The notes under the pieces are model-generated. The model was given only the letters and a program-made list of their open reading frames with translations. It was not told the DNA's origin and did no database searches. From the IMG/VR virus record IMGVR_UViG_3300042893_001581, positions 43,969 through 107,968 of that record: a DNA stretch of 64,000 nucleotides. One strand, 5' to 3'. Below, piece by piece: positions 5,200 through 43,982 of the stretch. The stretch is from a virus. Each line of letters opens with the position of its first letter. The first letter of the stretch is position 1. Position numbers and translations under genes: made by a program.

Positions 5200-5612
5200 T
5201 GGCTTACGGATTAAAACAAATATCGCCATTAGATTTTAAGCCATCAACAGCAATTGGGGTAAAAATCCCTTTTGATGCTGAAAATGTATTTTCGTCTGTA
5301 TACACTACCAAGGATCAAATAAAATATAATATTATTAATTTTTTATTAACTGATCCTAGAGAAAGAGTTTTTAATCCTACTTTTGGGGCTGGTCTTAGAG
5401 CTAGGTTATTTGAACAAATAGATCAAGCATCTTTTGAAGAAATTAAGCAGTCTATAAGAACTCAAATGGAAAATCAATTCCCTCAAGTTCAAGTTACTAC
5501 TTTAGATATTATAGGAAGTCCTGATTATAATTCAATCAATATAAAATTTAGTTATAGACTATTAAGATCAAATGAAAATGATTCGGTTGTATTGACTATA
5601 CAAAACATGTAG
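5199..5612 (+). CDS. baseplate wedge subunit, T4 gp25/GPW-like
   Basis: IKYNIINFLLTDPRERVFNPTFGAGLRARLFE is the gp25 family motif. Confidence 0.9.
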   Translation: MAYGLKQISPLDFKPSTAIGVKIPFDAENVFSSVYTTKDQIKYNIINFLLTDPRERVFNPTFGAGLRARLFEQIDQASFEEIKQSIRTQMENQFPQVQVTTLDIIGSPDYNSINIKFSYRLLRSNENDSVVLTIQNM

Positions 5613-5614
5613 AA

Positions 5615-7474
5615 ATGGCTAACCAAGTTGACATTAAATATTTAAACAAAGATTTTGCTTCTTTAAAAGCAGATCTAATAGAATATGCAAGAGCATACTA
5701 TCCTACTGCGTACAATGACTTTACTCAGGCATCACCTGGTAGTATGTTTATTGATATGGCTTCTTATGTAGGAGATGTGCTTTCATTTTATTTAGACAAT
5801 CAACTACAAGAAACATTTTTACAATATGCTAAACAAAAAGGTAATTTATTTACCTTAGCTTACATGTTAGGTTATAGACCTAAAATAACTTCTGCAGCTA
5901 TAGTGAATCTTGATGTATATCAACAATTACCTGCGGTTAGTCTTGGTGGTAGCAATGTAGCTCCTGACTTTACTTATGCAATGACTATAGAGCAGGGAAT
6001 GCAAGTTAAATCAAATGTAAATAGCTCTGTAATATTTTATACTCCTCAAAAAGTTAATTTTGCATCATCTTCTTCTTTAGATCCGACTACAGTAGAAGTA
6101 TATACAATAAATGGAAGTAATGTTCCTACATCTTATCTTCTAAAAAAGACTGTTCAAGCTTTATCAGGACAAACTAAAACTCAAACTTTTAGTTTTTCAT
6201 CTCCACAAAGATTTGCAACCGTAAATATATCAGATAGTTCTATTATTACAATATTAGAAGCAAAAGATTCTGACGGTAATACTTGGTATGAAGTTCCTTA
6301 CTTAGCTCAAGATTATATATTAAAGCCAGTACAAAATACTGCAGCTAACTATCCATCATTATATCAATTCCAGAATCAGGTTCCTTATATGATACAGAAG
6401 TTATCTGTGCCTAGAAGGTTCACATCTAGATTTAGAGCTGATGGTTCTTTAGAAATAGAATTTGGTCCTGGTATCAATTCAGTTGCCGATACAGCGGTAC
6501 TTCCTAATCCTAATAATGTAAGTGTTGGTTTAACTGGTGGTGGACTTAGCACTCTATCTAGTTCATTTGATCCAACAAACTTTGTTACAACTCAAACATA
6601 TGGATTAGCTCCAAAAAATACAAGTATATCATTTCAATATTTAGTGGGTGGCGGTGCTTCTGCAAATGCTTTAAGTAATCAATTAACTCAAATTGTATCT
6701 TATACAGTAACAGGAAATACAACCTATCAAAATACTATAGTAGTAAATAATGTAGATCCTGCTTCAGGAGGTGGCGACGGTGACACTGTAGATGAACTTA
6801 GAATGAATATTGCAGCAGAATTTCCTACTCAATATAGAGCAGTTACTCAAGAAGATTATTTGGCGAGAACTCTTAGTATGCCTCCTCAATATGGTAAAAT
6901 ATCAAAGGCATATATAACTAAAGATGACGCAACATTCAATAATTACATGCAAGGTGATTTTAGTCAAAAAGATCAAGTATTAGTTAGTCTTTATGTATTA
7001 GGTCTTGATGCTAATAATAATATAGCAGATCCTTCACCAGCGTTACTTCAAAATCTACAAACATATTTGTCAGATTATAGAATGATGACTGATGCCATTA
7101 ATATTAAACCTGGTTATGTAATTAATATAGGCTGCAATTTTGAAATTATAATTAGACCTAATTACACTGGTCAAGATGTAATTGCTAGATGTATATTAAC
7201 TTTACAAGACTTTTTTAATATAAATAATTGGCAAATAAATGAACCAATTATATTAGGAGACATCTATTCTTTATTAGATGTAGTTGAAGGAGTTCAAACA
7301 GTAAAAGATGTGAGGATAGTAAATAAATCTGGTGAAGCTGATGGATATTCAAAATACTCTTACGATATATCAGCAGGCTCTTTAAATGGTGTTATTTATC
7401 CTTCTTTAGATCCTTCTATATTTGAAGTAAAATTCCCTAATACAGATATTCAAGGTCGTGTAGTAACAATGTAA
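5615..7474 (+). CDS. baseplate wedge subunit, T4 gp6/baseplate J-like
   Basis: KDFASLKADLIEY, DMASYVGDVLSFYLD, LAYMLGYRP, GGGDGDTVDELR, QYRAVTQEDY motifs. Confidence 0.9.
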   Translation: MANQVDIKYLNKDFASLKADLIEYARAYYPTAYNDFTQASPGSMFIDMASYVGDVLSFYLDNQLQETFLQYAKQKGNLFTLAYMLGYRPKITSAAIVNLDVYQQLPAVSLGGSNVAPDFTYAMTIEQGMQVKSNVNSSVIFYTPQKVNFASSSSLDPTTVEVYTINGSNVPTSYLLKKTVQALSGQTKTQTFSFSSPQRFATVNISDSSIITILEAKDSDGNTWYEVPYLAQDYILKPVQNTAANYPSLYQFQNQVPYMIQKLSVPRRFTSRFRADGSLEIEFGPGINSVADTAVLPNPNNVSVGLTGGGLSTLSSSFDPTNFVTTQTYGLAPKNTSISFQYLVGGGASANALSNQLTQIVSYTVTGNTTYQNTIVVNNVDPASGGGDGDTVDELRMNIAAEFPTQYRAVTQEDYLARTLSMPPQYGKISKAYITKDDATFNNYMQGDFSQKDQVLVSLYVLGLDANNNIADPSPALLQNLQTYLSDYRMMTDAINIKPGYVINIGCNFEIIIRPNYTGQDVIARCILTLQDFFNINNWQINEPIILGDIYSLLDVVEGVQTVKDVRIVNKSGEADGYSKYSYDISAGSLNGVIYPSLDPSIFEVKFPNTDIQGRVVTM

Positions 7475-8592: not shown

Positions 8593-8933
8593 TGGCGAAT
8601 GTAGAAATGGTTAAGGAGATTTATGGACTTAATACGTACAGTAAAGCTATAAATACTAATTTTACTGAACTATTACAACCTGCTGTTGTTGAAGCTCCAA
8701 CTACTGAGATAACAGTTGATCAGTTTTTTGAATACTACGACCAATTATTTTTTACTATACCTGTTGATGGTACTATTAACTCTCATACATATTTAGTTGA
8801 AACAAGTCAACAATATATAGGAGGATCTGTAATAGATGCAGAAAAACAAGCACTAATAGAAGAGATAAATTCTTTACGCCAACAGCTTTTAGATATTAAT
8901 CAATCGTTTGCAAATATTAATGATATAATATAA
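8592..8933 (+). CDS. hypothetical baseplate-region protein
   Basis: 113-aa ORF coupled to both neighbours; C-terminal coiled coil. Confidence 0.8.
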   Translation: MANVEMVKEIYGLNTYSKAINTNFTELLQPAVVEAPTTEITVDQFFEYYDQLFFTIPVDGTINSHTYLVETSQQYIGGSVIDAEKQALIEEINSLRQQLLDINQSFANINDII

Positions 8934-13725: not shown

Positions 13726-14760
13726 ATGTCATTTACAAGATTAGATCCTACAGATTTTGTGGTATCTGCCGACTCAGTAACGGCACCAGCATGGAGTAAT
13801 AATGTAACTACTCTTACTAGTTTTTTTACAGCTTCTGCATCAACTACGGGTAGTTATTACGTTGATGTATATGATGGAAATATAAGTTCTCCATCTGCAT
13901 CAGTTCAATTCTCAGTAGCTTATGGACATTATGCTGGATCTGGATCTTTAGCTCTAAATAGTTTAGTGCTAGGAAAAAGCCCAACTAGAATTACATTTGG
14001 CCAATTTAGAAATTTAATTTATGGAGATGCAGAAAGTGCTGTAAATTTTGGTACGGGAAATGTTGATTCAGATGATTTAATAGCTATTCAAATAGATAGA
14101 AATAGATATAAAGAGAGTTTATTCCCAGGTACTTTTAATTTAACTTTACTTAATGGTGCCAACGGTCCTATTAAATTAACTGATAACTCAAATGATGTAA
14201 GTACTATAACATATTTAGACGGTGGAAGAGTTTATAATATAGTATCTGGTTCTAATGGAACGGCTAAAAATAGTCCAACTTTATCTGGAGCAACTCAAGG
14301 AAATACTGTGTCAGGAAGTTATGGTTTATTTTTACCTGACATTGGATTAATTCTTTTAAACCCTAGAGCTTTATCTTTGGGCACTGCTGCTGGTGGAATT
14401 GTTACTTCATTCAATACAACAGCAAATACAGTAGCTGCATCTAGTGCAAATAATAATTTAATCTATGCTATAATTAATTCTGGTTCTAATTTTCAACTTA
14501 ATTCTCAAGAAACAATCTCTTCTGATTATGTATTTGTAAGATTTAAAAATGCTGACTATAACTATACTACTAATCCTTCATTTATAACGGGTTCTGGTGA
14601 ATTAATATATTCTAATTTCATTAATAGTCCTCAAACATATCCTACAACTGTTGGATTGTATAACGATAACAATGAATTATTAGCAGTAGCTAAAATGTCT
14701 AAACCTCTTACAAAAGACTTTACTAAAGAGGCTCTTATTAGAGTTAAATTAGATTGGTAG
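13726..14760 (+). CDS. baseplate/tail-collar structural protein (intact paralogue)
   Basis: C-terminal TTVGLYNDNNELLAVAKMSKP..K...IRVKLDW is a tail-collar-type motif. Confidence 0.6.
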   Translation: MSFTRLDPTDFVVSADSVTAPAWSNNVTTLTSFFTASASTTGSYYVDVYDGNISSPSASVQFSVAYGHYAGSGSLALNSLVLGKSPTRITFGQFRNLIYGDAESAVNFGTGNVDSDDLIAIQIDRNRYKESLFPGTFNLTLLNGANGPIKLTDNSNDVSTITYLDGGRVYNIVSGSNGTAKNSPTLSGATQGNTVSGSYGLFLPDIGLILLNPRALSLGTAAGGIVTSFNTTANTVAASSANNNLIYAIINSGSNFQLNSQETISSDYVFVRFKNADYNYTTNPSFITGSGELIYSNFINSPQTYPTTVGLYNDNNELLAVAKMSKPLTKDFTKEALIRVKLDW

Positions 14761-14783: not shown

Positions 14784-16829
14784 ATGGGAATGTCAAAAAA
14801 TACTCTTGATAGATCAGATATTTCTACTTTTCCTATAAAGTTAAAATATTCTTCATCTTATGCAAGTTCATCTGCTGTAAGTTATGGAATAACTTTAAAT
14901 AGAGGAATTAATGGATCTTTTAATTCTGACGGAGAAGATTTTCTAGTATATAAATTAGCTAAACAACTATATTATAATTCTTATTTAACTGGATCTTTAA
15001 ATAATACTGCAAGTGCTTGGAATGACAATTTACAATCCACGGCAGCATCAGGTACTTTTGATAATGATTATAGATATTTTCCAACTACATCGGGTGATGA
15101 AATAACAGTATTAGCAATACCTAGGACTGTTTTTGGTGAAAATATAAGTAGAAAAAGTTTTGTATTATCAGGAACTACTTATAATTTAATTGATGACGGT
15201 AATGGAAATGTTATAGATGTAAATAATAATAACGTACATGTAGGAAATATATTATATGCTCAAGGAATAGTTATTATTACAAATTTAGATTATGAGTATG
15301 CTCTAATACAAACAACGACAACGACAACTACTACTAGTACTACATCAACTACTACTACTGCGGCACCTACAACCACTACTACTAGTACAACAACTAGTAC
15401 AACTACGGCTGCGCCGACTACTACTACTAGTACAACAACTAGTACAACTACGGCTGCGCCGACTACTACTACTAGTACAACAACTAGTACAACTACGGCA
15501 GAGCCGACTACTACTACTAGTACAACAACTAGTACAACTACGGCAGAGCCGACTACTACTACTAGTACAACAACTAGTACAACAACAGAAACTCCAACAA
15601 CTACCACAACTACTAGTACAACCACTAGTACAACAACTGTTGCATCTACAAACCATTTTAGAAGTGTAACTCCTCAAAGTAGTGCTGCTAACGCTTGTCT
15701 ACAAAGTACACCGAATGATATCTATACTTCTGTAGCAACATCTACTATGGCAAACAGTATTGTATTCTATTCAGATGCTAATTTAAACACTGTTTTTAAT
15801 GGTGCAAGCCAATGGTTCAAAATATTATGGAAAGGATCTGTAGGATTTGATGATATTTATGCAGTACAAATTAATTCGTCAGGTGTAGTGTTAAATTGGG
15901 AATACTGCCCAACAACTACCACAACAACTAGTACAACAACAGGAGTTCCTACAACCACTACAACTAGTACAACGACTAGTACAACAACAGAAGTTCCTAC
16001 AACCACTACAACTAGTACAACGACTAGTACAACTACAGCAGCTTGTTATGAATATGTAGCAACGGCAGGCCAAACAGATATAGATAATTCAGATAATGGA
16101 ACTGTTTATTTTAACTATACAGATTGTGATGGAAATCCTCAAACTCTTAGCAGAGGAACAACTACTCCAAGCAATCCAGTTTGTGCTATAAATGTAGGAA
16201 GTGTTTATATATTAATAGGAGGAAATCAATCCGCAGCTGGAAGCAGTTCATGGAGTACACCTGGAACACAGTGTAATGGAGCTCCAACGACCACAACTAC
16301 TAGCACTACAACAGAAGCTCCGACAACAACTACTACTAGCACGACTACTAGTACTACAACTGTAGTACCTACTACAACAACGACTAGTACAACTACATCA
16401 ACAACAACAGAAACTCCAACAACAACTACTACTAGTACAACAACTAGTACTACAACTGCAGAACCAACTACAACTACAACGACAACTAGTACAACTACAT
16501 CAACAACTACAGCAGAGCCTACTACAACCACAACAAGTACAACTACAACAACTACAACTATAGCTTGTTATGAATATATAGCTACAGCAGATCAAACAGA
16601 TATAGATAATTCTGATAACGGAACTGTTTATTTTGAGTATGTTGATTGTGATGGAGTAACCCAAACACTAACTAGAGGAACAACAACTCCAAGTGATCCG
16701 GTATGTGCAAGAAGCGTAGGATCAGTTTATATATTAATAGGAGGAAATGCATCAGCTGCAGGTGGTAGTTCTTGGAGCGTACCTGGTACACAATGTAATC
16801 CTGGTGGCGGTGGTGGAGGTGGAGCGTAA
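14784..16829 (+). CDS. structural protein: tail-collar-like N-domain fused to mucin-like Thr/Ser/Pro stalks and Cys modules
   Basis: First ~176 aa resemble the N-half of 13726-14760; then three Thr tracts, one unique module and two 79-aa 4-Cys modules; poly-Gly C-terminus. Confidence 0.85.
   Translation: MGMSKNTLDRSDISTFPIKLKYSSSYASSSAVSYGITLNRGINGSFNSDGEDFLVYKLAKQLYYNSYLTGSLNNTASAWNDNLQSTAASGTFDNDYRYFPTTSGDEITVLAIPRTVFGENISRKSFVLSGTTYNLIDDGNGNVIDVNNNNVHVGNILYAQGIVIITNLDYEYALIQTTTTTTTTSTTSTTTTAAPTTTTTSTTTSTTTAAPTTTTSTTTSTTTAAPTTTTSTTTSTTTAEPTTTTSTTTSTTTAEPTTTTSTTTSTTTETPTTTTTTSTTTSTTTVASTNHFRSVTPQSSAANACLQSTPNDIYTSVATSTMANSIVFYSDANLNTVFNGASQWFKILWKGSVGFDDIYAVQINSSGVVLNWEYCPTTTTTTSTTTGVPTTTTTSTTTSTTTEVPTTTTTSTTTSTTTAACYEYVATAGQTDIDNSDNGTVYFNYTDCDGNPQTLSRGTTTPSNPVCAINVGSVYILIGGNQSAAGSSSWSTPGTQCNGAPTTTTTSTTTEAPTTTTTSTTTSTTTVVPTTTTTSTTTSTTTETPTTTTTSTTTSTTTAEPTTTTTTTSTTTSTTTAEPTTTTTSTTTTTTTIACYEYIATADQTDIDNSDNGTVYFEYVDCDGVTQTLTRGTTTPSDPVCARSVGSVYILIGGNASAAGGSSWSVPGTQCNPGGGGGGGA
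15312..16559 (+). repeat. coding tandem repeats (~45 bp, A[A/E]PTTTTSTTTSTTT)
   Basis: Tracts 15312-15638, 15912-16037 and 16287-16559; unit ccgactactactactagtacaacaactagtacaactacggc(t/a)g(c/a)g. Confidence 0.95.
16041..16799 (+). repeat. duplicated 237-bp Cys-rich module
   Basis: 16041-16277 and 16563-16799 both encode ACYEY.ATA.QTDIDNSDNGTVYF.Y.DCDG..QTL.RGTTTPS.PVCA..VGSVYILIGGN.SAAG.SSWS.PGTQCN. Confidence 0.95.
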
Positions 16830-16840
16830 CAACTTTCACA

Positions 16841-16848
16841 ATATTTAT
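16841..16848 (+). promoter_or_regulatory. candidate late promoter ATATTTAT
   Basis: 20 nt before ATG 16869. Confidence 0.55.
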
Positions 16849-16868
16849 TAATATAAAATAAAACTGTT

Positions 16869-17825
16869 ATGAAAAATTTACGTTATATTTGTGCTCAACC
16901 TAGATTGGTTTATTATGCTTGGCAAGTAGAAGTTATGATTAATAATTTCATTAAGAATGGAATTAATCCTAATAATATAGATATTCTTGTAGCTTGGAAT
17001 CCTAATGATGATACAAGTAAGCCAGAGACTATTGAGATGTGGAATAAACTTACAGCTCATTATAATACTGTCAGATTCTTTTTTTATGAAGATACTAGGA
17101 AAAAGCCTATACACTACATTTCATCCATTAGGCCAAACATACTGAAGCAACACTTTAAAGCTCACCCTGAATTAAAAGACGAGGCAATATTTTATCATGA
17201 TTGTGATATTTTATTTACTAAGCCTGTTGATTGGACTAATCTATTAAATGATGATATTTGGTATTTAAGTGATACCAATAGTTATATAAACTCCTCGTAC
17301 ATACTTTCTAAGGGTGAGGATGTTTACAACAAGATGTGTGAGATTGTTGGTATAGATTCAATAGTACCAAAACTAATGAACTCTAATTCAGGTGGTGCAC
17401 AGTACATACTAAAAAATGTAGGTTGGGAATATTGGACAAAAGTAGAACAAGATTCTGAAAACTTATTTTACCAAATAAATCAACTAAATCATAAGAAGAA
17501 AGAAGAAGATCCATCTCATCATGAACTTCAAATATGGTGTGCAGATATGTGGGCCGTGTTGTGGAACGGGTGGCTTTGGGGTAATGAAACAAAGGTAATT
17601 AAAGAAATGGATTTTAGTTGGGCAACAGATTCAGAAGAACGATTTAATGAAACAAATATATTTCATAATGCAGGAGTAACTTGTTCTTGTGGAGGAAAGT
17701 TTTATAAAGCTAACTATAGAGATTCACTTCCTTATAATTTAGATCTTAGAATAAAAGAAGGAATGGCAAGTTATAAATACTATCAAGAAATTCAAGAAGT
17801 AGAAAAAAAATCTTCTTTATTGTGA
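16869..17825 (+). CDS. GT-A glycosyltransferase resembling HPAT/SGT1 (GT95/GT96) peptide O-glycosyltransferases
   Basis: SIRPNILKQHF / AIFYHDCDILFTKP (DxD) / GGAQYIL / WCADMWA parallel N(R/K)P...W, D.D.IF..P and W..EMY.. of those families. Confidence 0.55.
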   Translation: MKNLRYICAQPRLVYYAWQVEVMINNFIKNGINPNNIDILVAWNPNDDTSKPETIEMWNKLTAHYNTVRFFFYEDTRKKPIHYISSIRPNILKQHFKAHPELKDEAIFYHDCDILFTKPVDWTNLLNDDIWYLSDTNSYINSSYILSKGEDVYNKMCEIVGIDSIVPKLMNSNSGGAQYILKNVGWEYWTKVEQDSENLFYQINQLNHKKKEEDPSHHELQIWCADMWAVLWNGWLWGNETKVIKEMDFSWATDSEERFNETNIFHNAGVTCSCGGKFYKANYRDSLPYNLDLRIKEGMASYKYYQEIQEVEKKSSLL

Positions 17826-17836
17826 TTAAATAAATT

Positions 17837-18412
17837 ATGAAAATAGAATTTATAATATCAACTCATGGTAGAGTTAATAACTTAAATATGTCTTTAGGTT
17901 GTTTACAAAGTCAAACAAATAAAAATTGGGTAGCTAATATTATAGTTGACGGAATTAAAGATCCATACATTGAGTGTGAAAAATATTTTTCAAATGATGA
18001 TAGAATAATATTTAATTATTTGGAAAAAAATTATAATGACTTTGGGAATACTCCAAAAAATATAGGATTGCAATCAGCAAAAGAAGAATTAGTTATTATG
18101 ACTAGCGATGATAATTATTACGTTGCATCTTTTGTTCAAGAAGTATTAAATAATTATTCGGAAAATATTAATTTTATTTATTGTGATATGATACATAATG
18201 GATATGATTATAAATTTTTTGAAACGTACCACTCATCTCATAGAATAGATATTGGTATAATGATTATGAAAACAAAATTTGCTAAACAATTAAAATTAAC
18301 AGAAAACAGAATAGACTCAGATGGAATTTTTTGTCATGAATATACTTCTAAATTTTGTCAAAATGAAGGGTCAATTAAAAAAATAAATAAAATTTTATAT
18401 GCTCATAATTAA
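17837..18412 (+). CDS. GT2-family glycosyltransferase
   Basis: IEFIISTHGR..LQSQT..W..IIVDG; GNTPKNIGLQSAKEELVIMTSDDNYY. Confidence 0.8.
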   Translation: MKIEFIISTHGRVNNLNMSLGCLQSQTNKNWVANIIVDGIKDPYIECEKYFSNDDRIIFNYLEKNYNDFGNTPKNIGLQSAKEELVIMTSDDNYYVASFVQEVLNNYSENINFIYCDMIHNGYDYKFFETYHSSHRIDIGIMIMKTKFAKQLKLTENRIDSDGIFCHEYTSKFCQNEGSIKKINKILYAHN

Positions 18413-19274
18413 AGCTCTATACGGAAATAAAGATTGCACTCAACAAATTAAGTCTAAAATTGTAAATGATAAATTAATAGTTAGATCATGTAACGATATT
18501 ATAGGTGATACACTTCCTGGAGTTATAAAATATCTTGAAGTAGATATAGAGCATAAAAATAAAATTTATAATGAAAAAATTAAAGAGGGAGAGTTATTAG
18601 TTTTTCCTAAATCAAAAAATAATAAATTAGGAATTTTTTATTCTAATAATCATGTCTCTCAAACTTATCCTACTATAAAAAAATCTTTAGATACAATAAA
18701 AATAGCATCAGAAGGAAAAGCAGATATTTTAACTTGTATGTGGAATCACGAACCTGATAATCCATTTCCTGAATTTATTTCTTGGGTAAAGATATCTAGC
18801 CACCTAAATCAATTGCTTCAAATAATGCATTTATTATATCAAGCAAGAGAGATTAATAATTATAATTATGTTTCTTTTCTAGAACATGATGTTCTTTATC
18901 CAGAAGGATATTTTGATTATCCAGAAATAAATGATGGAGAAGTTTTAACTAATATGAATTATATGGGGATTTGCAGAAGCGGTTGGCAAAGTTTAGGGCA
19001 GTTAGATCAACCATTTCATCAAATGACTATGAAATTTTCAGAAGCAATAAAACATTGTGAATCTATATTGTCTAATGCGTTAATAAGAAATTCAGGTCTT
19101 ATAGAACCTCAAAATATTATCAGAAAAACTTGGAATTGTATTAATCCCTCTGTCCATGTTAATCATGGATATCATTTTACTTCTCACTTTAATGTGTACA
19201 GAAAAGATGATATTTTTCACGAACATTCATATTGGGGAATTTTTGAAAACTATAAGTATTTATTTGAGTTTTAA
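18399..19274 (+). CDS. SUEL/rhamnose-lectin-like (DUF3395-like) domain fused to a GT-A-like domain
   Basis: N-term IIKALYG..DCT..NDIIGDTLPGVIKYLEV; C-term YVSFLEHDVLYP. Confidence 0.55.
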   Translation: MLIIKALYGNKDCTQQIKSKIVNDKLIVRSCNDIIGDTLPGVIKYLEVDIEHKNKIYNEKIKEGELLVFPKSKNNKLGIFYSNNHVSQTYPTIKKSLDTIKIASEGKADILTCMWNHEPDNPFPEFISWVKISSHLNQLLQIMHLLYQAREINNYNYVSFLEHDVLYPEGYFDYPEINDGEVLTNMNYMGICRSGWQSLGQLDQPFHQMTMKFSEAIKHCESILSNALIRNSGLIEPQNIIRKTWNCINPSVHVNHGYHFTSHFNVYRKDDIFHEHSYWGIFENYKYLFEF

Positions 19275-19285: not shown

Positions 19286-19585
19286 ATGCCATCTTATTCT
19301 GCATATACACTTAATTTAGTAGCCGAGACAACTGTATACCAAAACGAAGTTAGGTGTAGGGTGAAGGAAAATGATTTTAACTATACGTTAAATCCGAGTG
19401 CAAATAAAGCAGGAACCTCAGGTTCTTATATAGATGCAGTAACAGGTTCAGACTTTCATCCTTATACAACCACAGTAGGATTATATAATGATAAAGATGA
19501 GTTATTAGTAGTTGGAAAATTATCTAGGCCATATCCAATTCCACCTAATACAGATATGACTTTTATTATAAGGTGGGATAGTTAA
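19286..19585 (+). CDS. C-terminal half of a split tail-collar-like protein
   Basis: CRVKENDFNYTLNPS...PYTTTVGLYNDKDELLVVGKLSRP...FIIRWD aligns with the C-half of 13726-14760. Confidence 0.8.
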   Translation: MPSYSAYTLNLVAETTVYQNEVRCRVKENDFNYTLNPSANKAGTSGSYIDAVTGSDFHPYTTTVGLYNDKDELLVVGKLSRPYPIPPNTDMTFIIRWDS

Positions 19586-19595
19586 AAAATAAAGT

Positions 19596-20051
19596 ATGAA
19601 TAAATGGTTATATTTTGATCCTCTAGGAGTTACTAGAGAGTTTAATTCAATAGAAGACTTTCCACCCAATACTGTTGGCTTTATATATAAGATTGTCAAT
19701 CTAGTCAATGGCAAATTCTATATAGGTAGAAAGGTCCTTTTCAATAATACCAATAAAGTATTAACCAAGAAGGAGATCGCGGAATGGGACAAACCTGGGC
19801 GCGTCCCACGCAAGAAGAAGATCATTAAAGAATCTGATTGGTTATCATACCATGGAAGTAATAAGCTTCTTAATCAAGAAAGAAAAGAAATAGGGGATGA
19901 TATGTTTACTAGAGAGATCTTACAATTATGTTACTCTAAAAAACAATTGACTTATTATGAAGTATGGTGGCAAATGCATTACAAAGTTCTTCATATAGAT
20001 TCATATAACGATAATATCCAAGGTAGGTTCTATAGAAAGGATGTAGAATAA
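19596..20051 (+). CDS. GIY-YIG endonuclease, T4 EndoII/Seg-like
   Basis: GFIYKIVNLVNGKFYIGRK, Y.GS, FTREIL, YYE, YNDNI motifs. Confidence 0.85.
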   Translation: MNKWLYFDPLGVTREFNSIEDFPPNTVGFIYKIVNLVNGKFYIGRKVLFNNTNKVLTKKEIAEWDKPGRVPRKKKIIKESDWLSYHGSNKLLNQERKEIGDDMFTREILQLCYSKKQLTYYEVWWQMHYKVLHIDSYNDNIQGRFYRKDVE

Positions 20052-42698: not shown

Positions 42699-43982
42699 TT
42701 ACTCTATAGTCAATAATGAATAGTCGAACGGTGGATTAGTTACAACAATTTGATCCTGGGCTAAATCTACCATGTTTCTGATCTCTATTTTAGCAGATCC
42801 TAATTCATATATTCCAGGTTCAGAAGCTTCTAGGATGTCACCCAAGCGCGTTATATTTTGTAAGAATTCGTCTTTAGATGGATCTACGTTTGTAAAGTTT
42901 ACTTCTATTTTTATATTATAATCTGTAGGTTCTCCCACTTTATAAATTGACTTAAAATCTGTAGTTCTAAATAAATGCTTAGCCTGTTCCCAACCTTCAT
43001 TAGTATATCCTAAAAGTGTATTAGCTGGTTCTTGTTCATTACTTAAGGTTCGAATCATGGCATTTACCTCTTCCTCTGATCTCAGCCACAGTCTAGAACA
43101 GTAAACTTCTAATTGCGCTAAGAACATTGGGTTTAATTGTTTATTGTCTTTTACTACAAGATCTATATCTAATTTTTTTAACTTACTTTCTCCATGATTA
43201 AAATTTCCCCACTTTTTTAAAAATCTTCTAATCTCTATTCCGTCTGCAATCTTTTGTAGTTCTACTCTTTCTTTTGCTTCTTTATTGTTTTCGTCAAACC
43301 AATTTTTTCCTCTAGAACTTACACAAGTAAAATGATAAACAACTGGTTTAAATGTTTGTTTTAACTTTATTCCAGATTGAACACATCTTTGTACAAAATC
43401 TGAATCCTCTCTAGATCTTCTAAATATAGTATCATAGCCTCCGATCTTTTGCCATGTTTTTTTATAAAAAGTATATGGAGCAAAAAAGTATTCAGCTACT
43501 TTATTTTCCTTTACAGTAATAGAATATGAATTCCAATCTTCTATATTGAATTGTAAAGGATCTACGCCAAAATCTTTTATTATTACAACATTAGATGGAC
43601 CATGAAGTGGTGGTTCTACTCTAGTTGAACTTATTATACAATCATCTTCTATTTCAGATAGTATGTCTATATCATAATTTGGTGATATAACCATATCACT
43701 TTGAAGATAACTAACTATATTATGTTTAGCTATATCAACAAGAAGATTGGAGTTCCTTTGATATCCTACTGGCCCTTTAAGTTTATGTGTTACTATTTTT
43801 AAATCGTAAAAATCTTTTTTAATACTTTTAAGATATTGATATGTTCCATCATTATCTTTATCTATAAAAACTATAATCTCATGTTCTTTACCAACTAAAT
43901 TAATTTTTAAAGATTCTAATAGTAATTTAGTATATTCTAAAGTGTTAGCTCCTGTGTTTGTTATAAAACTTATTGGTTCCAT
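42699..43982 (-). CDS. GT2-family glycosyltransferase
   Basis: ISFI...EIIVFID..NDGT; SYLQSDM; IGGYD..F..SREDSDFVQR; VYHF. Confidence 0.85.
   Translation of the reverse strand: MEPISFITNTGANTLEYTKLLLESLKINLVGKEHEIIVFIDKDNDGTYQYLKSIKKDFYDLKIVTHKLKGPVGYQRNSNLLVDIAKHNIVSYLQSDMVISPNYDIDILSEIEDDCIISSTRVEPPLHGPSNVVIIKDFGVDPLQFNIEDWNSYSITVKENKVAEYFFAPYTFYKKTWQKIGGYDTIFRRSREDSDFVQRCVQSGIKLKQTFKPVVYHFTCVSSRGKNWFDENNKEAKERVELQKIADGIEIRRFLKKWGNFNHGESKLKKLDIDLVVKDNKQLNPMFLAQLEVYCSRLWLRSEEEVNAMIRTLSNEQEPANTLLGYTNEGWEQAKHLFRTTDFKSIYKVGEPTDYNIKIEVNFTNVDPSKDEFLQNITRLGDILEASEPGIYELGSAKIEIRNMVDLAQDQIVVTNPPFDYSLLTIE

Follow-up and report, generated by a model that had tools for sequence, protein, structure and literature searches.

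The stretch of DNA analysed here (the window, 64,000 nucleotides (nt) long) covers positions 43,969 to 107,968 of the IMG/VR virus record IMGVR_UViG_3300042893_001581. An open reading frame (ORF) at 16869-17825 on the plus strand, exactly where an earlier interpretation of the DNA letters (the sequence-only reading) had placed it, encodes an enzyme of 318 amino acids (aa) from phrog_4417. The gene belongs to a plus-strand structural block downstream of myovirus-type baseplate wedge genes (phrog_219, phrog_6 and phrog_261) and lies next to a gene for a mucin-like protein. The best explanation of the whole is that the product is a cytoplasmic, metal-dependent, retaining glycosyltransferase (GT) of GT8-like GT-A type which places the first sugar onto the mucin-like virion protein; we assign this reading a probability of about 0.62. 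The two genes and their parts are the following:

14784..16829, plus strand: gene of the mucin-like virion protein (681 aa, predicted acceptor), with a conserved N-terminal domain (about residues 1-176), three Thr/Ser blocks and Cys domains
15312..15638, plus strand: Thr/Ser block 1 (residues 177-285), 45-nt tandem repeats
15912..16037, plus strand: Thr/Ser block 2 (residues 377-418), from the run scan and repeats
16287..16559, plus strand: Thr/Ser block 3 (residues 502-592), from the run scan and repeats
16044-16274 and 16566-16796, plus strand: duplicated four-Cys domains (residues 421-497 and 595-671), near-identical, about 77 aa, with the pattern CYEY..TDCDG..PVC..TQCN
16869..17825, plus strand: glycosyltransferase gene of phrog_4417, 318 aa, ATG start, soluble GT-A enzyme
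17199..17207, plus strand: DxD motif D111-C-D113, at the end of the strand formed by residues 106-110, conserved in both alignments
17391..17405, plus strand: GGAQY motif, with G176-A177-Q178 invariant
17529..17555, plus strand: motif Q221-x-W223-C-A-D-M227-W228-A, with Q221, W223 and M227 invariant
17664..17708, plus strand: invariant C-terminal motif H266-N-A-G269-V ... F278-x-K280, from the alignments

The mucin-like neighbour postulated in the sequence-only reading is real. Thr accounts for 32% and Ser for 12% of its residues, and it contains 16 runs of at least six Ser/Thr (at least three Thr each), which fall into the three blocks. No other ORF of the window has such runs. At the DNA level the blocks are built of 45-48-nt tandem repeats. 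One further Cys-containing domain is present besides the two four-Cys domains; the latter, located between Thr blocks, may be binding modules displayed on a glycosylated stalk. The N-terminal domain is kept in 15 related loci, each time just upstream of the transferase.

Four sequence elements of the enzyme had been pointed out before, and three of them are conserved beyond chance: YHDCDILFTKP (residues 109-119), GGAQY (residues 175-179) and WCADMWA (residues 223-229). The fourth, described as RP-x4-HF, is present as RPNILKQHF (residues 88-96) with a spacing of five residues instead of four, and only P89 of it is conserved, not HF. In a family alignment of 44 sequences with 32-69% identity to the query, D113, G176, Q178, M227 and W228 are invariant and D111, A177 and W223 nearly so. 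A second alignment of 16 sequences, which reaches Gram-positive phages (30-54% identity), has D111, D113, G176-A177-Q178, Q221, W223, M227, H266, G269 and K280 as invariant positions. Residues of catalytic type are conserved throughout, and D111-C-D113 is presumed to bind the metal and the nucleotide sugar. GT8 enzymes possess a DxD motif and a C-terminal motif of the HxxGxxKPW type. In the phage enzyme the DxD, H266-x-x-G269 and K280 are invariant, but the spacing is different and PW is absent. The H266...K280 motif may be the counterpart of the His-containing metal/acceptor motif of GT8.

The protein matches phrog_4417, a PHROGs family of unknown function, significantly and over its full length (expect value (E) 3.2e-63, 214.6 bits; residues 5-312 align to positions 2-292 of the 293-position profile), and Pfam contains nothing that matches the query. 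The family is large. Among clusters at 90% identity it comprises 3677 proteins at E<=1e-3; at 50% identity there are 862 clusters, and each source name seen was 'hypothetical protein'. With the Q221-x-W223...A motif as a search pattern 594 viral and 134 genomic relatives were recovered, and 77 phage records contain the family. A Megablast search with 12 kb of the window gave no match to isolated phages. In other members the family domain is fused to GT6, GT2, GT32, GT7C or GT25 domains or to a methyltransferase, and in one member to radical SAM and SPASM.

An AlphaFold2 model calculated from the 44-sequence alignment had a predicted local distance difference test score of 97 and a predicted template modelling (TM) score of 0.93. 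It shows one globular domain whose first strand begins at residue 4, without an N-terminal hydrophobic or membrane segment. Each of the ten best structural matches is a retaining GT-A enzyme, and proteins are the substrates of several (glycogenin, GlyE, AgtA and UGGT). The nearest solved folds belong to GT8, GT24, GT77 and GT6, with GlyE as the nearest; Foldseek matches include UGGT (4.5e-8), XXYLT1 and LgtC, with TM-scores of about 0.43-0.47. In a library of viral models the matches outside the family were mostly GT8-like as well. By its modelled fold the enzyme is therefore grouped with GT8/GT24/GT77, and it is almost certainly a glycosyltransferase, for which a retaining chemistry is to be expected. 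The closest folds, namely the GT8-type enzymes LgtC, glycogenin, GlyE of the pneumococcal serine-rich-repeat protein pathway and the LARGE1 xylosyltransferase domain, together with the neighbouring GT24 UGGT and GT77 AgtA, share just 8-12% sequence identity with the phage enzyme. The GT8 Pfam profile PF01501 has no match at E<=1 in three sets of 44, 10 and 7 family members, and the GT8 model found nothing at E<=0.1 in any of five phage genomes that encode the family. Sequence searches of the PDB with the protein itself and with the family profile A1 returned adenylyl-cyclase noise and spurious TALE-repeat matches restricted to the GGAQ segment, and these were rejected.

The gene order around viral relatives couples the family to Thr-rich proteins. 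The locus set consists of 80 viral contigs from IMG/VR that encode relatives with 49-77% identity. When an ORF is counted as Ser/Thr-rich if a 40-aa segment contains at least 60% of these residues, 53 of 70 immediate upstream neighbours on the same strand qualify, compared with 19 of 452 other ORFs of at least 150 aa. A stricter rule demands a poly-Thr run, defined as at least eight Ser/Thr including at least five Thr. By this rule, 51 of the 77 ORFs one gene upstream and 12 of the 68 two genes upstream contain a run, compared with none one gene downstream (0/77) or two genes downstream (0/71), and 17/725 for all other ORFs of the loci. The poly-Thr upstream gene is found in 18 of the 28 clusters at 70% identity.

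The same pairing occurs in distant phages with 30-39% identity. In the Lactobacillus phage Semele the enzyme is preceded by a 115-aa protein with TTTTTSTTTVKP repeats, and a poly-Thr tract lies inside the protein encoded upstream of it in the Chryseobacterium phage MA9V-3. Three phages, Enterococcus phiFL1A, Lactococcus 1706 and Clostridium phiCTP1, have the enzyme gene directly behind the tail-tube gene, whose product ends in poly-Thr. In Lactococcus bIL285 and Enterococcus VPE25 it stands behind a capsid-sized gene (annotated as 'capsid protein' in bIL285), and the poly-Thr tail is found on the tail-tube protein a few genes away. Of 14 such loci in Firmicutes genomes (presumed prophages), 7 likewise have poly-Thr tails, on proteins of about 215, 400 or 110 aa. 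The control consisted of six homologous tail proteins of phi13 type whose phages lack the enzyme (Ruminococcus, Exiguobacterium and four Streptococcus phages, all absent from the list of 77 records), and none of them has a poly-Thr tail. They stop shortly after a conserved W(F/Y)xx(V/P)(Y/H) segment, whereas the bIL285 and VPE25 proteins, which come with the enzyme, run on into the poly-Thr tail.

Two further glycosyltransferase genes follow the enzyme gene in the window, and a short sequence element precedes it:

16840..16848, plus strand: the 9-mer AATATTTAT, a possible late promoter, 20 nt upstream of the ATG
17837..18412, plus strand: second, small GT2-like glycosyltransferase of 191 aa, a candidate chain extender (Pfam Glycos_transf_2, E 2.5e-4, 21.5 bits, cut-off 23.3)
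18399..19274, plus strand: third glycosyltransferase, with an N-terminal beta domain of about 70 aa and a GT2-like GT-A domain (residues 73-286) containing an invariant E162-H163-D164

For ORF 17837-18412 no homolog was found in any of the 80 related loci, and hence it is a variable accessory gene. In the third transferase the N-terminal all-beta domain (residues 1-70, 18399-18610) is modelled with local scores of 93-97; its family accompanies the enzyme in 36 of the 80 loci, including loci without a Ser/Thr-rich neighbour. About 15-17 related loci have a common gene order, consisting of the genes at 8933, 13055 and 13726, the mucin gene, the enzyme gene, variable genes, the gene at 19286 and SegE. 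There the enzyme always adjoins the mucin gene, but the accessory transferases differ from locus to locus or are missing, a pattern that fits an initiating enzyme with exchangeable extenders.

Three GT-A genes in a row would also be compatible with a different division of labour, in which one of the two GT2-like neighbours or a host enzyme adds the first sugar to the mucin-like protein and the phrog_4417 enzyme extends the glycan. Glycan extension is a common activity of GlyE, the nearest fold, and of GT8 enzymes in general, and the frequent company of the 18399-19274 family, in part without a Ser/Thr-rich neighbour, points in the same direction. However, GT2, GT1 and GT8 Pfam models detected no gene in the genomes of phiFL1A, VPE25, 1706, bIL285 and phiCTP1, all of which have poly-Thr tails. 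There the enzyme is the only transferase that these models detect, and any glycosylation of the tails must consequently start with it. The constancy of the enzyme beside the Thr-rich gene argues against an extending role too, since the other transferases vary or are missing (the close relative L024, for example, has no accessory transferase left), as does the family domain being most often N-terminal in the fusion proteins, where it is the shared module. We regard the extending role as rather unlikely.

The initiating Thr/Ser transferase proposed in the sequence-only reading is thus backed by gene order, co-occurrence and the phage genomes with a single glycosyltransferase; the acceptor and the initiating step themselves stay predictions. 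The resemblance to the plant enzymes HPAT (GT95) and SGT1 (GT96) claimed there fared less well. The families GT95 and GT96 are related, and HPATs sit in the Golgi as type II membrane proteins; HPAT and SGT1 both start O-glycosylation, on small peptides and on repetitive tracts of hydroxy amino acids, e.g. CLE peptides and extensins (PMC8012813). A true member of this lineage would be expected to share its chemistry, e.g. the transfer of arabinofuranose or alpha-galactose onto peptide hydroxyls. HPAT (PF23452) is in fact the sole glycosyltransferase Pfam family touched by any scanned phrog_4417 member, namely by 2 of 44. The best match, P0253 (38% identical to the query), reaches 21.9 bits and E 1.3e-4 with residues 9-242 against profile positions 9-230 of 307, i.e. 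over 220 profile positions. The gathering cut-off is 23.9 bits, and the best among more than 54 scanned members falls below it. Likewise, 22 of the 30 nearest named clusters in the ESM Atlas carry HPAT (6 carry DUF7164), and the single HPAT-carrying cluster listed has HPAT in just 10% of its members.

The query itself has no match to PF23452 at E<=1, and neither have seven homologs from isolated phages. An HPAT domain is annotated in none of 85 relatives of P0253. With the HPAT model, seven sequences encoding family members (two phage records, five bacterial genomes) also gave nothing, a result to which we attach little weight because control genomes were likewise empty. In the Foldseek comparison GT8-like folds came nearest, and neither an HPAT nor an SGT1 structure was among the PDB matches listed. 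The phage enzyme is soluble and has no N-terminal membrane anchor, in contrast to the plant enzymes, which are type II membrane-anchored in the Golgi (this applies also to SGT1, a peptidyl-serine alpha-galactosyltransferase). In addition, the plant acceptor is hydroxyproline, whereas Thr/Ser is predicted here; what remains alike is the repetitive hydroxy-amino-acid acceptor, if correctly predicted, and the PF23452 signal. HPAT is therefore the nearest named sequence family to phrog_4417, below threshold and without membership. True membership in the GT95/GT96 lineage is improbable, and common ancestry of the phage enzyme with HPAT/SGT1, as far as the sequences allow a judgement, is less so but still doubtful.

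In bacteria the family has a second context. A genome scan yielded 134 relatives, mostly from Bacteroidota (Chitinophaga, Pedobacter, Sphingobacterium, Mucilaginibacter and Elizabethkingia), where the chromosomal homologs are two-domain proteins of 500-590 aa. In the two loci examined, LanC-like and radical-SAM genes adjoin the homolog. A precursor peptide with a double-glycine leader (leader end ...LSREQLKNVLGG) lies within 4 kb in 28 of 61 such loci. The precursor cores are Cys-rich, and many have a Ser/Thr-rich start or end, e.g. WTGSTTTGPTQGGTTSP, VSWTTTTTTSSVP and ...KTTTVPTTPAPTA. These loci, which resemble gene clusters for ribosomally synthesized and post-translationally modified peptides (RiPPs), are:

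L097-L153, L162 and L165 (Bacteroidota genomes): RiPP-like loci, with examples at L101:182-376, L138:2452-2724 and L148:3609-3857

The Bacteroidota context looks like RiPP tailoring, with the precursor peptides as candidate glycosylated RiPPs. Hence the family again stands beside Ser/Thr-rich peptide substrates.

That the acceptor is phage DNA or a host envelope polysaccharide, with the Thr-rich neighbours incidental, might be suggested by the transferases that phages commonly carry for DNA or host surface conversion (reviewed in PMC12619734), by a sugar-biosynthesis island of some 20 kb, which adds six glycosyltransferase-like genes on the opposite strand of the window, and by the 24 of 80 loci that lack a nearby Ser/Thr-rich ORF, but is very improbable in view of the strong direction-specific bias (51/77 upstream, 0/77 downstream), the co-variation of poly-Thr tails with the enzyme among homologous tail proteins, the position of the siphophage gene inside the tail/head module between the tail-tube gene and the genes ahead of the tape measure gene, the lack of a membrane segment in the enzyme and the RiPP-like peptide clusters around bacterial homologs.

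The preferred reading, an enzyme initiating O-glycosylation of the mucin-like protein, can be put as a sequence of steps. A soluble, cytoplasmic, DxD metal-dependent enzyme of retaining GT8-like GT-A type would transfer the first sugar from a common uridine diphosphate (UDP)-sugar to Thr/Ser hydroxyls of the 681-aa protein, within its disordered poly-Thr tracts, before or during virion assembly. The two GT2-like enzymes encoded downstream would then lengthen the glycan, and the glycosylated tracts would form a stiff, protease-resistant, hydrated stalk or shield. With the gene contexts described above, it is quite probable that the enzyme acts on Ser/Thr-rich proteins or peptides, and to a lesser but still favourable degree that it starts O-glycosylation of the adjacent mucin-like protein.

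Several observations weigh against this reading. No Ser/Thr-rich ORF lies within 6 kb of the enzyme in 24 of the 80 viral loci, and two close relatives of the phage, L007 and L024, keep the enzyme though the upstream protein (5446-5976 in each) ends at 176 aa, where the Thr tract would start. Most Bacteroidota homologs have no poly-Thr protein nearby, and consequently a poly-Thr virion protein cannot be the acceptor in every case. Because the loci were gathered via the transferase, poly-Thr proteins without the enzyme were tested on one tail-protein family only, and related loci are non-independent observations. That the phrog_4417 enzyme acts ahead of its two transferase neighbours is a prediction. 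A literature search found no biochemical or mass-spectrometry data for any family member, and no study on phrog_4417 or on poly-Thr tails of phage proteins.

The closest known process is the virion glycosylation of mycobacteriophages. According to PMC12363180 and PMC12619734, both citing Freeman et al. 2023, transferases encoded by the phages (Che8 gp108-110, Corndog gp38 and Myrna) decorate the C-termini of capsid and tail-tube subunits. This glycosylation blunts antibody recognition. Within the surveyed literature, virion glycosylation by phage-encoded enzymes is described for mycobacteriophages only. Both systems combine a phage transferase with Ser/Thr-rich tails or linkers on virion proteins, here poly-Thr tails on tail-tube and capsid-sized proteins next to the enzyme. 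In two loci on Bacillus and Paraliobacillus contigs (L154 and L164, presumed prophages) a capsid-sized protein (about 400-420 aa) is poly-Thr-tailed, and so is one of tail-tube size (about 215 aa) directly upstream of the enzyme. These double tails mirror the capsid-plus-tail-tube pattern reported for mycobacteriophages. The enzymes, however, differ: gp108 of Che8 combines GT2 with a methyltransferase, gp109 is GT2-like and gp110 belongs to GT25. An alignment of the family profile A1 with gp109 and gp110 in hhalign gave a probability of 0.1%, i.e. no relationship, and mycobacteriophages do not occur among the 77 phage records with the family. As far as the sequences tell, the mycobacteriophage enzymes are unrelated to phrog_4417. 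To animal mucin-type O-glycosylation by the polypeptide GalNAc-transferases (GT27) there is a likeness of architecture only. GT27 enzymes are absent among the fold matches listed for the target, and the resemblance is likely a result of convergence.

Some further features of the window deserve mention. The 9-mer AATATTTAT is also found ahead of the plus-strand gene starts at 971, 4759 and 19286. Its count in the window shows no enrichment (10 matches, 8.5 expected, i.e. chance level) and the positions alone are suggestive, so that the evidence for a late promoter is weak. Scans for sigma-70 promoters and terminators gave results at chance level. Behind the transferase cassette, in the window as in 17 related loci, lies a 99-aa ORF (19286-19585) homologous to the C-terminal part (about 80 residues) of ORF 13726-14760 (41% identity, E 5e-13). 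The N-terminal domain of the mucin-like protein has no significant BLASTP match to ORF 13726-14760 (E 4.5). Thus, the idea of a split gene is half supported, because ORF 19286-19585 matches ORF 13726-14760 and the mucin N-terminal domain does not. A homing endonuclease of the SegE-type GIY-YIG class follows directly after the cassette at 19596-20051 (Pfam E 2.5e-25), a position kept in 13 related loci.

The sugar-biosynthesis island mentioned above (about 20 kb, 42699-63281, minus strand) includes a GDP-mannose 4,6-dehydratase (E 4e-115), a DegT-type aminotransferase, several NAD-dependent epimerases/dehydratases, a three-domain thiamine pyrophosphate enzyme and a 3-dehydroquinate-synthase-like protein. 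It further encodes an SDR, an HpcH-type aldolase, a methyltransferase-like protein and DUF3431, and its six glycosyltransferase-like genes are of GT2 type, some below the Pfam cut-off, except for one GT1. Unusual donor sugars for the virion glycan may come from this island, or it may serve to remodel the host surface. The stretch 14784-19274 was detected in 24 lake-water/freshwater metagenome runs from 21 studies (2018-2024) with 86-97% of the sampled 31-mers. Since the cassette is found almost unchanged across these runs, the phage and its repeat-rich cassette appear to be widespread and stable in lakes.

At its widest, our proposal treats phrog_4417 as a previously unrecognised family of cytoplasmic peptide/protein Ser/Thr O-glycosyltransferases that starts mucin-like glycosylation of virion poly-Thr tracts in many unrelated phages (freshwater myoviruses as well as phages of Bacteroidota, Lactobacillus, Enterococcus, Lactococcus, Staphylococcus and Clostridium), tailors Bacteroidota RiPPs and shares ancestry with HPAT/SGT1; taken together in this form it is speculative and rather more likely wrong than right. 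The regular pairing of the family with Thr-rich stretches on virion proteins suggests that many phages coat their particles with mucin-like sugars. phrog_4417 would then be a new, very widespread transferase family for phage virion O-glycosylation, and probably for peptides. If this is true, sugar-coated poly-Thr tails and stalks would be common on phages. Among these would be phages with Enterococcus, Staphylococcus or lactic acid bacteria as hosts, which are in use or under consideration for therapy and are relevant to dairy fermentation. This would bear on phage immunogenicity and stability, on adhesion to mucus or host polysaccharide and on the interpretation of cryo-electron microscopy and mass data. 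The family would add protein O-glycosyltransferases with a very simple acceptor (TTTTSTTT), which may be useful for glycoengineering, and would hint at a class of glycosylated RiPPs made by Bacteroidota. Thousands of 'hypothetical proteins' would thereby be given a function.

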